The notes under the pieces were generated by a model. It made no database searches. It saw only the letters and a program-made list of their open reading frames with translations, and was not told the origin of the DNA. The position numbers and the translations under genes were made by a program. This document shows, one piece after another, positions 27,038 through 27,679 of a DNA stretch of 54,958 nucleotides. This DNA comes from a virus (lineage: Duplodnaviria > Heunggongvirae > Uroviricota > Caudoviricetes), in IMG/VR virus record IMGVR_UViG_2671180568_000004. The stretch is one strand, 5' to 3'. How positions within the stretch are numbered: the first letter of the stretch is position 1; each line of letters begins with the position of its first letter.

Positions 27038-27136
27038 ATCACCACCAACGGATTGCCCAGACCAGAACAGCAATGGCCACAATACGAATGGCAAATGCCA
27101 TTGCCCGAATAAGTTCAGCACTCATCTTTTTAAAGT

Positions 27137-27409
27137 TCACGATTTCAGCGCAATGACCAGTTTTGCCAGCCCATACAGCATCGGAGACACAGCAATACCA
27201 ACAGCCACCCACTTAATAGCAAAAGCCAGCGCTCTGCTGATGTCATCAGTCACTGTCACCCCAGCAGCCCCGACGAAGACAACATCACCCAGGCGAGGGA
27301 CAGAAAAAGAGCAACCAGCATTAGTGAAAATGAAATACCGACAATCACACACAGGACCTTTGCCGGCGTTATGAGTTTGTCTGACATAGCTACCCCTTAA
27401 TTGCCACAA
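27137..27409 (-). CDS. hypothetical small hydrophobic protein(s) in the R-Rz spacer
   Basis: ATG with AAGGGG RBS gives MSDKLITPAKVLCVIVGISFSLMLVALFLSLAWV... (44 aa); a second hydrophobic frame follows; the track merges them. Confidence 0.25.
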   Translation of the reverse strand: MWQLRGSYVRQTHNAGKGPVCDCRYFIFTNAGCSFSVPRLGDVVFVGAAGVTVTDDISRALAFAIKWVAVGIAVSPMLYGLAKLVIALKS

Positions 27410-27559
27410 TTAACTGGGATACTACCCATAAAAAAGGGATGCTCCAGACCAGCAAAAATTTCCAGTTTGGTAATTGACTAATCATGAGTCGCAACTCCCT
27501 AATCAGTTTGCTAAAATCAATCAAGGCAGCCTCCCATAGCTTACTGCCATAAAAACAAA

Positions 27560-27595
27560 ACCCCGCTTGCTGCCAACAAACGGGGTTTTTACTTT
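27560..27595. terminator. bidirectional hairpin terminator between the endolysin gene and Rz
   Basis: AACCCCG-cttgctgccaacaaa-CGGGGTT flanked by T-runs on both strands. Confidence 0.5.
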
Positions 27596-27679
27596 TATTC
27601 ACTTACATTTTGCCAGTTCGCAGGATTTCGTGTTATCCGTCCGCCTTGGCCAACGTCATTTATTAGCAAAATATTCTGC

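Follow-up and report, generated by a model that had tools for sequence, protein, structure and literature searches.

The stretch of DNA analysed here (the window; 54,958 nt, IMG/VR record IMGVR_UViG_2671180568_000004, Caudoviricetes) holds a lambdoid late operon in an Escherichia coli prophage. We examined the spacer that separates its endolysin gene R from its i-spanin gene Rz. Lambdoid lysis cassettes, including those of Shiga-toxin (Stx) phages, are usually described as holin, endolysin and spanin. At this place the original prediction, made from the window alone, had described a 640-bp insert with a bidirectional terminator and one or two small hydrophobic open reading frames (ORFs). The insert was confirmed and measures 642 nt (27038–27679); all genes concerned lie on the minus strand. 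We conclude that the spacer represents a 'post-endolysin module' that is conserved, and shuffled by recombination, in enterobacterial lambdoid late operons. The module and its boundaries are as follows:

27680–28213, minus strand: endolysin gene R, 177 aa (Pfam PF00959 Phage_lysozyme, 1.3e-23), the upstream boundary of the module
27590–27679, minus strand: R 3′ untranslated region (3′UTR), about 90 nt with one variable patch, common to all 39 unique gap variants
27547–27594, minus strand: intrinsic terminator, made up of an A-run (27590–27594), a hairpin (27557–27589) and a U-run (27547–27556)
27390–27524, minus strand: ORF0, family A, 44 aa (L/MIDFSKLIRELRLMISQLPNWKFLLVWSIPFLWVVSQLIVAIKG), with a TTG start and one predicted transmembrane (TM) helix
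27256–27387, minus strand: ORF1, family B, 43 aa (MSDKLITPAKVLCVIVGISFSLMLVALFLSLAWVMLSSSGLLG, MSDKLITPAK...), matching phrog_4906 (4.5e-21); RefSeq WP_001280935.1
27137–27259, minus strand: ORF2′, a short or truncated form of family C, matching phrog_1115 (3e-24)
27039–27125, minus strand: ORF3, a recurrent short form of family C, 28 aa, matching phrog_4493 (3.8e-6); RefSeq WP_032140280.1
26543–27037, minus strand: Rz (i-spanin; PF03245, 2.2e-49), the downstream boundary of the module
26632–26817, minus strand: Rz1, embedded in Rz (PF06085, 1.7e-21)

Four consecutive hydrophobic ORFs therefore follow the terminator, 1–11 nt apart or overlapping, and reach to the start of Rz. The hydrophobic frames of the original prediction were real, but their number had been underestimated, and the frame it took as the first, with a good ribosome-binding site, is the second. 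That frame, the MSDK ORF (ORF1), does have a good Shine–Dalgarno (SD) sequence, AAGGGG at 27393–27398, and its ATG lies 2 nt past the ORF0 stop. The true first frame, ORF0, has its own SD (GGGAGG, 27530–27535) 5 nt before the TTG. It matches positions 1–43 of the 45 in phrog_6632 (E = 1.4e-13), and its homologues in Citrobacter, Enterobacter and Klebsiella have 45 aa and start with ATG; annotation of this gene varies, and PGAP or GenBank sometimes call a 70-aa or 31-aa version.

The two remaining ORFs both belong to family C. ORF2′ could start at a GTG overlapping the ORF1 stop ('GTGA'; 40 aa) or at a GTG at 27253 (38 aa), and PGAP calls a 51-aa version. It lacks the family C N-terminal motif MKNGLExDAP, the full-length 60-aa form being found in other arrangements, and represents a family C gene truncated at residue 23, where it joins ORF1. 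ORF3 starts 11 nt past the ORF2′ stop with a poor SD, and its own stop and the Rz ATG are 1 nt apart. The Rz SD, GGTGGTGA, falls within the last codons of ORF3, and GGTGGTGAT precedes the ATG of Rz. ORF3 is a paralogue of ORF2 (Smith–Waterman score 47, reached in 0 of 2000 shuffles).

Each of the four peptides contains one 19-aa stretch of TM grade (Kyte–Doolittle mean 1.9–2.9), in agreement with the earlier suggestion that they are membrane-active, which remains a prediction. Among 1000 dinucleotide shuffles of 27038–27546, none had three or more non-overlapping TM-grade ORFs of at least 28 aa on one strand, and the real opposite strand of the same region carries no array of such ORFs. PGAP already annotates three hypothetical proteins in the spacer (WP_001280935.1, WP_042004856.1 and WP_032140280.1), and the corresponding PHROG families, 6632 (A), 4906 (B) and 1115/4493/3246 (C), are all labelled 'unknown function'. 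Searches of the peptides against Pfam (E ≤ 1), NCBIfam and PADLOC gave no match.

Two sequence likenesses to lysis proteins were considered and set aside. The resemblance of ORF1 to the N-terminal TM domain (TMD) of Rz ('VLCV') was not significant (p = 0.12). The family C core (KWVAVGIAVSPMLYGLA; ORF2′, 27137–27259) shares 44% identity over 16 residues with TMD2 of the S21 holin (28906–29199); homology was rejected (hhalign probability 1.8%; shuffle p = 0.006 before multiple-test correction), and the likeness is probably a convergence of small-residue helix-packing motifs.

The hairpin has a stem of 15 pairs on the gene (minus) strand and is followed by GUUUUUAU, which marks it by sequence as an intrinsic terminator; the last four As of the A-run open its stem. 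Its folding energy on this strand was −21.1 kcal/mol (z = −4.6), and equal stability was reached in 0 of 200 shuffles. T-runs had been reported on both strands of a strong hairpin, and both are present, but the plus-strand version is weaker (−15.3 kcal/mol, z = −3.8). It is followed by UUUUUACUUUUAUU (five Us, then interrupted) and fell short of the criteria of the terminator scan. Judged from its sequence, the terminator looks bidirectional. The same hairpin occurs in 36 of the 39 unique gap variants; the other three, which contain the antirepressor gene ant, have a different hairpin at the same place (GGCACCGUAAUGGUGCC then UUUG) and no A-run. Changes in the hairpin within the E. coli set mostly preserve pairing, yet there is almost no covariation. 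A structured small RNA (sRNA) in the R 3′UTR was dropped as a candidate, as the alignment fold gave the terminator only, without covariation: the RNAalifold covariation term was about 0 and the structure signal came from the terminator alone. Rfam at E ≤ 1 gave no match over 26000–29000.

We fetched 80 IMG/VR loci by Rz similarity, independently of what their gap contained, and both genes were present in 79. All 79 have an R–Rz gap, of 297 to ~1900 nt, holding a terminator and at least one small ORF. The premise that endolysin and spanin genes are normally adjacent thus failed for these Rz-selected relatives, none of which had a gap shorter than 297 nt. After the hairpin comes an SD and then one to four small ORFs from three families. 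Family A is ORF0-like, with a conserved N-terminus (MIDFSKLIRELR), and family B is ORF1-like. Family C has the core AVAFAIKWVAVGIAVSPxLYGLAKLIIALKS and occurs in long forms of 48–60 aa with the N-terminus (MxKYKRILLRLT)MKNGLExDAPVT and in short forms of 28–38 aa with the N-terminus MSA(E/D)xIRA. The orders seen were A-B-C-C (the window), C-B, C, A, C-C, C-C-B, Ant-A-B-C-C, Ant-B-C-Dam and Ant-B; besides the microprotein genes, the gap of relatives also carries the antirepressor gene, a Dam methylase gene and a small lipoprotein gene. In E. coli variants U10–U15 (e.g. L066) and in Salmonella (L088, 2979–3005), an 8-codon mini-ORF (MCREVYSL / MGREVLSL) lies just past the SD, and its stop overlaps a GTG able to start long family C; this may be leader-peptide coupling or chance.

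The Stx phage 933W (AF125520) has the Ant-B order, with a family B ORF between ant and Rz and neither of the other two families. This ORF (MISDKLITLVKSLCVLVGISF...) is unannotated in AF125520 and is annotated by PGAP in EDL933 (WP_000539792.1), where prophage CP-933N has the same ant-B arrangement. The R-ant-Rz region of 933W is the same locus as the spacer, with the same R 3′UTR, a hairpin, and family B directly before Rz. It differs in having an antirepressor gene, a different and apparently unidirectional hairpin, and only B, whereas the window has no ant and the full A-B-C-C set. In CP-933K of EDL933, R and Rz are adjacent and of another type. The Qin prophage of K-12 is without the gap, so small-protein data from K-12 do not apply here.

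The unit of terminator, SD and microprotein genes was found after four endolysin types: R21-like lysozyme, a 161-aa Salmonella lysozyme, GH108 and GH19. In Salmonella, a family C gene lies between the 161-aa lysozyme (with a PF16080-type holin) and Rz, behind a related 3′UTR and a diverged hairpin. In the GH108/PG_binding_3 cassette (with Phage_holin_8 and Phage_holin_3_7), C, B and a gene for a 60-aa lipoprotein come after a third version of the hairpin, and no recognisable Rz/Rz1 was found in this cassette. In Enterobacter, a fourth version of the hairpin lies ~20 nt past a GH19 endolysin gene and precedes an SD, family A and a pair of spanin-like genes. Across the four diverged versions, the A-run (A5) before and the U-run after the hairpin are retained. 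The diverged hairpins after the three other endolysin types retain a fold of about −22 kcal/mol or are recognised by the terminator scan, and the outer arms AAAACCCCG...CGGGGUUUU are kept in all versions, while the inner stem differs and still pairs. That the terminator is conserved in four diverged versions suggests that it serves some function. We infer three candidate roles: it may keep unmodified polymerase in the lysogen from transcribing onward, terminate antisense transcripts, or stabilise the flanking mRNA ends.

Some further features of these cassettes were observed. In Salmonella L088 (CP030203), a 32-aa hydrophobic ORF at 2714–2812 (MAAMICFVAAFMLACDGRSGWGWFLLVGLIVM) overlaps the lysozyme stop, upstream of the terminator. 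The GH108 cassette lies at 2540–3240 of locus L153 and also occurs in L111, L125 and L126; its lipoprotein belongs to phrog_7528 and has the lipobox LLVGC. The start of the R 3′UTR in the window (27657–27679), GCAGAATATTTTGCT(G/A)A(A/T)AAATGA, recurs at about 3247–3275 of L153, after this lipoprotein gene, and sequence of the GCAGAATATTTTGCT type looks like a mosaic-boundary linker for recombination.

A second set of 80 IMG/VR loci was collected with a degenerate family C pattern. In 66 of the 80 the match lies between a lysozyme gene and Rz, in five a lysozyme gene lies upstream and the contig then ends, and seven are GH108 cassettes. Of the remaining two, one sits at the end of its contig, and the other is a fusion with a tail-fibre-assembly-like gene. 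In this fusion (L103, 5279–5974), the family C ORF is joined in frame, within the TM helix, to a tail-fibre-assembly-like C-terminus, giving 231 aa in total; it represents a rearrangement of the prophage in which the lysis region has been connected to the tail-fibre region. The families are narrow: family B was found in E. coli only, family C in Escherichia and Salmonella, and family A in several Enterobacteriaceae. A profile search of 1.84 billion cluster representatives returned 20 matches to family C and linked it to no named family. Family C was not found among GTDB species representatives, where three pattern matches in Clostridia were due to chance.

The original prediction had also raised the question of whether the small frames were one gene split by a frameshift or a sequencing error. 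ORF1 and ORF2′ do adjoin, each in its own frame, and a single 90-aa frame in the ORF list extends over both. However, a 661-bp query covering the module was 100% identical in at least 25 E. coli chromosomes among the matches listed and ≥99% identical in 109 records, so that the same sequence stands in many independent assemblies. Among 5426 complete E. coli genomes, some part of the spacer was matched in 2078 and at least 80% of the query in 587, and the full module was present in 70 fetched loci with no indel or nonsense change. Its carriers include E. coli PCN033 and NCCP15648 and phages PhiR5_1 and PhiR12. Moreover, other loci have B and C as independent genes, with B first or C first and each with its own SD and start, and ahead of V23 the ORF2 frame shows no conservation at the protein level. 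These results refute the broken-gene reading, to which we attach a negligible probability.

We then estimated constraint from distinct alleles pooled over all arrangements, using the ratio of nonsynonymous to synonymous polymorphism (pN/pS). For family C, residues 13–60, pN/pS was 0.20 in the called frame against 0.84 and 3.4 in the shifted frames (22 nucleotide alleles; polymorphic sites by codon position 15:8:32), and it was 0.19 over residues 23–60, the part present in ORF2′ (13:8:29). The short, ORF3-type form of family C gave 0.33 against 0.74 and 1.54 (11 nucleotide alleles; 12:4:19), family B 0.46 against 0.78 and 1.46 (28 nucleotide alleles; 28:21:32), and family A about 0.65 against 0.73–1.71 (5–9 nucleotide alleles; 23:13:22). 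Family C is clearly under purifying selection, and over all families the ratio in the shifted frames spanned 0.7–3.6. No stops occurred in the called frame among 24 (B), 15 (C) and 8 (C3) protein alleles, and the shifted frames were mostly filled with stops; in family A, a stop interrupts the N-terminal extension of one allele. Distant members of families C and A retain hydrophilic N-terminal motifs, and AlphaFold predicted for family C a short N-terminal helix and one long helix (residues 23–59).

Published data add to this. XECs191, one of the translated novel small genes of strain Sakai reported by Hücker et al. 2017 (PMC5597208), is identical to the 933W family B ORF. In uninduced Sakai grown in LB it had a transcriptome value of 30.0 reads per kilobase per million (RPKM), a translatome RPKM of 12.6 and a coverage of 0.55, and it was predicted to be an inner-membrane protein with one TM helix (PMC5597208). 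These ribosome-profiling (Ribo-seq) values lend weak support to family B. Overall, families C and B are very probably real genes for membrane peptides, and family A is likely real. Our confidence is lower for the truncated ORF2′, which could be a passenger.

These data also bear on the view that the array is mostly non-functional recombination debris, a young A-B-C-C mosaic whose ORFs, especially ORF2′ and ORF3, are open only through youth, and in which what is conserved is DNA, namely the terminator as a recombination linker and the translation-initiation region of Rz. The A-B-C-C type is indeed nearly clonal, with 10 variable sites in 522 nt (five nonsynonymous, four synonymous and one intergenic). 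ORF2′ has lost the conserved family N-terminus and its own start, the 'IRWW' ending of ORF3 coincides with the Rz SD, and the stop in one family A allele fits the same view. However, constraint is frame-specific across arrangements, with no stops in the B, C and C3 protein alleles, and the 'MSA(E/D)xIRA...' short form is found in several contexts, with an ATG of its own. Conservation of families A and C extends beyond a single genus, and SD sites and stop–start coupling are kept. We therefore regard the debris view as improbable.

Along the minus strand, the operon runs Q, DNA methylase, NanS-p-type esterase, S21-type holin, DUF1327 gene, R, spacer and Rz/Rz1, followed by a DUF3950 gene on the opposite strand and then HNH and terminase genes. 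Two of the upstream genes are needed below:

35631–36452, minus strand: antiterminator gene Q, upstream of R in the same operon
28906–29199, minus strand: S21-type holin gene, part of the late operon

In lambda, Q-modified polymerase from pR′ ignores intrinsic terminators. Rz/Rz1 and 20 kb of morphogenesis genes would accordingly be expressed despite the hairpin because Q-modified polymerase reads through it. No sense promoter was predicted between the hairpin and Rz in any variant, so the peptides and Rz/Rz1 are most likely expressed by read-through from the Q-antiterminated late promoter. This points to the first of the two routes, read-through or a promoter of their own, that had been proposed for Rz/Rz1, and it makes late, Q-dependent expression of the microproteins probable. 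Cappable-seq tables for EDL933 (PMC10469882) list no sense transcription start site (TSS) for ant, the B ORF or Rz of 933W.

The pattern of expression is relevant to a further explanation, in which the peptide genes are lysogenic-conversion cargo (morons) with no part in lysis, for example genes for superinfection-exclusion peptides, a possibility raised by the original prediction, for immunity peptides or for host-fitness factors. Such genes would occupy a recombination hot spot of the late operon, with weak expression from the prophage. Like the lambda morons (bor, lom), the spacer genes are additional genes set close to a terminator and flanked by conserved phage genes, at boundaries of the mosaic. 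The content of the gap is variable, with ant, dam and the small lipoprotein gene also present at this hot spot, bor and DUF3950 morons lie just downstream, copies of families C and A adjoin tail-fibre and baseplate genes, and XECs191 gave RNA-seq and Ribo-seq signals in uninduced cultures. According to Hendrix and colleagues, however, the lambda morons reportedly carry their own promoter and a downstream terminator. The window array has no predicted promoter, nor has any variant a predicted sense promoter or 933W a listed sense TSS; the terminator lies directly upstream, not downstream, and the array runs into Rz without one. The low uninduced signal could stem from spontaneously induced cells, the tight link to a position after four endolysin types is not expected of free-standing morons, and PADLOC gave no match. 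On balance, we consider cargo of this kind unlikely.

Signals on the opposite strand suggest another possibility. One weak promoter-like site lies within the array:

27381–27410, plus strand: weak sigma70-like site (CTGACA-18-CACAAT with TG), antisense to ORF0

If active, this site might speculatively give an RNA of ~180 nt, antisense to ORF0 and ending at the plus-strand side of the hairpin. Up to 260 nt from the hairpin, the A-first, A2-first and C-first E. coli classes each have exactly one antisense sigma70-like site and no sense site; such a site is absent in the ant-type variants and in the Enterobacter A-first module. In 933W, Cappable-seq detected an antisense TSS (EDL933 NZ_CP008957, 1360912(−); PMC10469882, supplementary file 7), which corresponds to position 5430 of the 933W locus (L087), 6 nt upstream of the family B ATG. 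Its extended −10 element, TGATATCAT, is the complement of the family B start-codon region, and the RNA would run antisense into ant. This promoter is not conserved in the window. As for known sRNAs, the Pas sRNA preprint and Tree et al. 2014 place theirs elsewhere, and a keyword search of the Tree supplement with lysis-gene names returned no sRNA entry.

These signals would fit an arrangement like a type I toxin–antitoxin system, in which the first peptide is a membrane-depolarising toxin, and an sRNA from an opposite-strand promoter in the array, ended at the terminator, blocks its translation until the late transcript is made. The peptides do resemble type I toxins (Hok/Gef, Ldr, TisB, ZorO) in being small (28–60 aa), hydrophobic and single-helix, with a possible antisense promoter and a possibly bidirectional terminator. 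The A-run and U-run are retained in all four diverged hairpins, and the single antisense site is present in the three classes named above and missing from the ant-type variants that lack the A-run. The antisense TSS with its extended −10 at the 933W family B start points in the same direction. However, the promoter matches are weak (9–10 of 12), such matches arise by chance in 9–26% of shuffles per class (22–26% for the window type), and the pattern was noticed post hoc. The Enterobacter A-first module has no antisense site, and the 933W TSS belongs to an ant-type variant whose promoter the window does not share. Unlike type I toxins, the window peptides have no toxin promoter of their own and no sequence similarity to them, there is no Rfam match, the antisense RNA is a predicted one, and the genes are embedded in a late operon. 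We therefore rate antisense-guarded toxic peptides as quite improbable.

The explanation we prefer is that the ORFs encode late-expressed inner-membrane microproteins that modulate lysis. Before induction, the terminator would shield the peptide genes and Rz/Rz1 of the prophage from stray transcripts, and the side of it that acts on the opposite strand would prevent antisense transcripts from reaching R and S. The peptides would be made, alongside holin, endolysin and spanin, only when Q-modified polymerase from the late promoter passes the hairpin. They would then insert in the inner membrane and may tune lysis through its timing, its triggering or the release of endolysin. The holins and endolysins found alongside the peptides are unrelated to one another, which makes it more plausible that their target is a general one (the proton-motive force or membrane organisation, for instance) than that it is one particular holin. 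This reading is favoured by the fixed position after four endolysin types, the tight coupling to the spanin gene, and precedents in other phages. As a whole it is the best explanation at hand, and we hold it tentatively, at a little under an even chance; the lysis-modulating role of the peptides, taken by itself, is possible yet rather doubtful.

Several observations weigh against this explanation. Constraint on families B and A is weak (pN/pS 0.46 and 0.65), and since the A-B-C-C type, with its 10 variable sites, is near-clonal, selection on the arrangement and on the truncated ORF2′ cannot be judged. The gap also holds cargo unrelated to lysis (antirepressor, Dam methylase), which makes position alone weak evidence, and single copies occur elsewhere, with family C after a tail-fibre-assembly gene (L092) and family A among baseplate genes (L222). 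No homology to holins, antiholins or releasin was found with Pfam, NCBIfam, PADLOC or, against S21, hhalign (1.8%). The peptides share with holins and antiholins a TM stretch and a place in the lysis cassette, and they match none of those families in sequence. Nor do they look like two-component spanins, as they have 28–60 aa with few residues outside the helix and are followed by a genuine Rz/Rz1.

Among the precedents, phage P2 has a membrane-protein gene, lysA, between endolysin K and the spanin-like lysB/lysC; it is non-essential and thought to modulate lysis timing. The position between endolysin and spanin genes is the same here, but LysA is one larger, multi-TM protein, whereas the spacer encodes one to four single-helix peptides of 28–60 aa behind a terminator. 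The releasin gp25 of phage Mu (DUF2730) is a small membrane-tethered protein encoded near a SAR (signal-anchor-release) endolysin and spanins and needed for endolysin release (PMC9239132). Unlike the window, which has an S21-type holin and peptides without a DUF2730 match, Mu is without a holin, and gp25 has a cytoplasmic domain. In Shewanella, the 65-aa, single-TMD protein Lcc6 of LambdaSo is required in a pinholin/SAR-endolysin system (bioRxiv 10.1101/2024.01.23.576932). The lcc6 gene lies far from the lysis genes, near int/xis, and its product has a 43-aa cytoplasmic tail; homology to the window peptides is not expected. The window's own R has a hydrophobic N-terminus (MNAKIRYGLSAAVLALIAAGA) and may be of the SAR type, a name given for its likeness to phage 21 R.

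A more daring variant of the preferred explanation joins it to the antisense signals. The unit may be a portable 'lysis trigger' module, whose toxic peptides are silenced by the terminator and an antisense RNA and freed by Q-antiterminated late transcription. The peptides might then lower the proton-motive force and so set off the upstream holin or SAR endolysin. The proposal is a long shot. If true, it would explain why the same unit stands after four unrelated endolysin types.

The surroundings of the spacer showed some additional features. A DUF1327/YdfR gene (28557–28901, minus strand) sits between the holin gene S and the endolysin gene R, so that, together with the R–Rz spacer, the lysis cassette is interrupted twice. 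A plus-strand ORF of 90 aa (28319–28591) is partly antisense to this gene, and PGAP annotates both. Directly 3′ of Rz is a 74-aa ORF (26322–26546, minus strand) with no Pfam match. Further on, the DUF3950 (YnfO/YlcI) gene (25863–26123, plus strand) lies on the opposite strand and is oriented toward Rz; its transcript is one candidate target for the plus-strand face of the hairpin.

The module is widespread, already annotated as hypothetical proteins, and uncharacterised. A literature search with the peptide strings and the WP and PHROG identifiers found nothing, and neither a genomics paper on Stx phages (PMC8136144) nor a survey of spanins (PMC6139136) discusses the gap. The peptides are thus unstudied members of the small accessory membrane proteins in phage late operons, and their novelty is modest.

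These results indicate that a large group of lambdoid cassettes holds a fourth, unstudied component at a fixed place, consisting of a terminator and a cassette-like array of microproteins. If the peptides were inert or acted as exclusion factors, the conserved terminator inside a Q-dependent operon would still need explaining. A role in lysis, if true, would add to the short list of accessory factors that includes Mu releasin and LambdaSo Lcc6. The module is carried by Stx phages of the 933W type, and if its peptides tune lysis timing, both burst size and the timing of Stx release would be affected.

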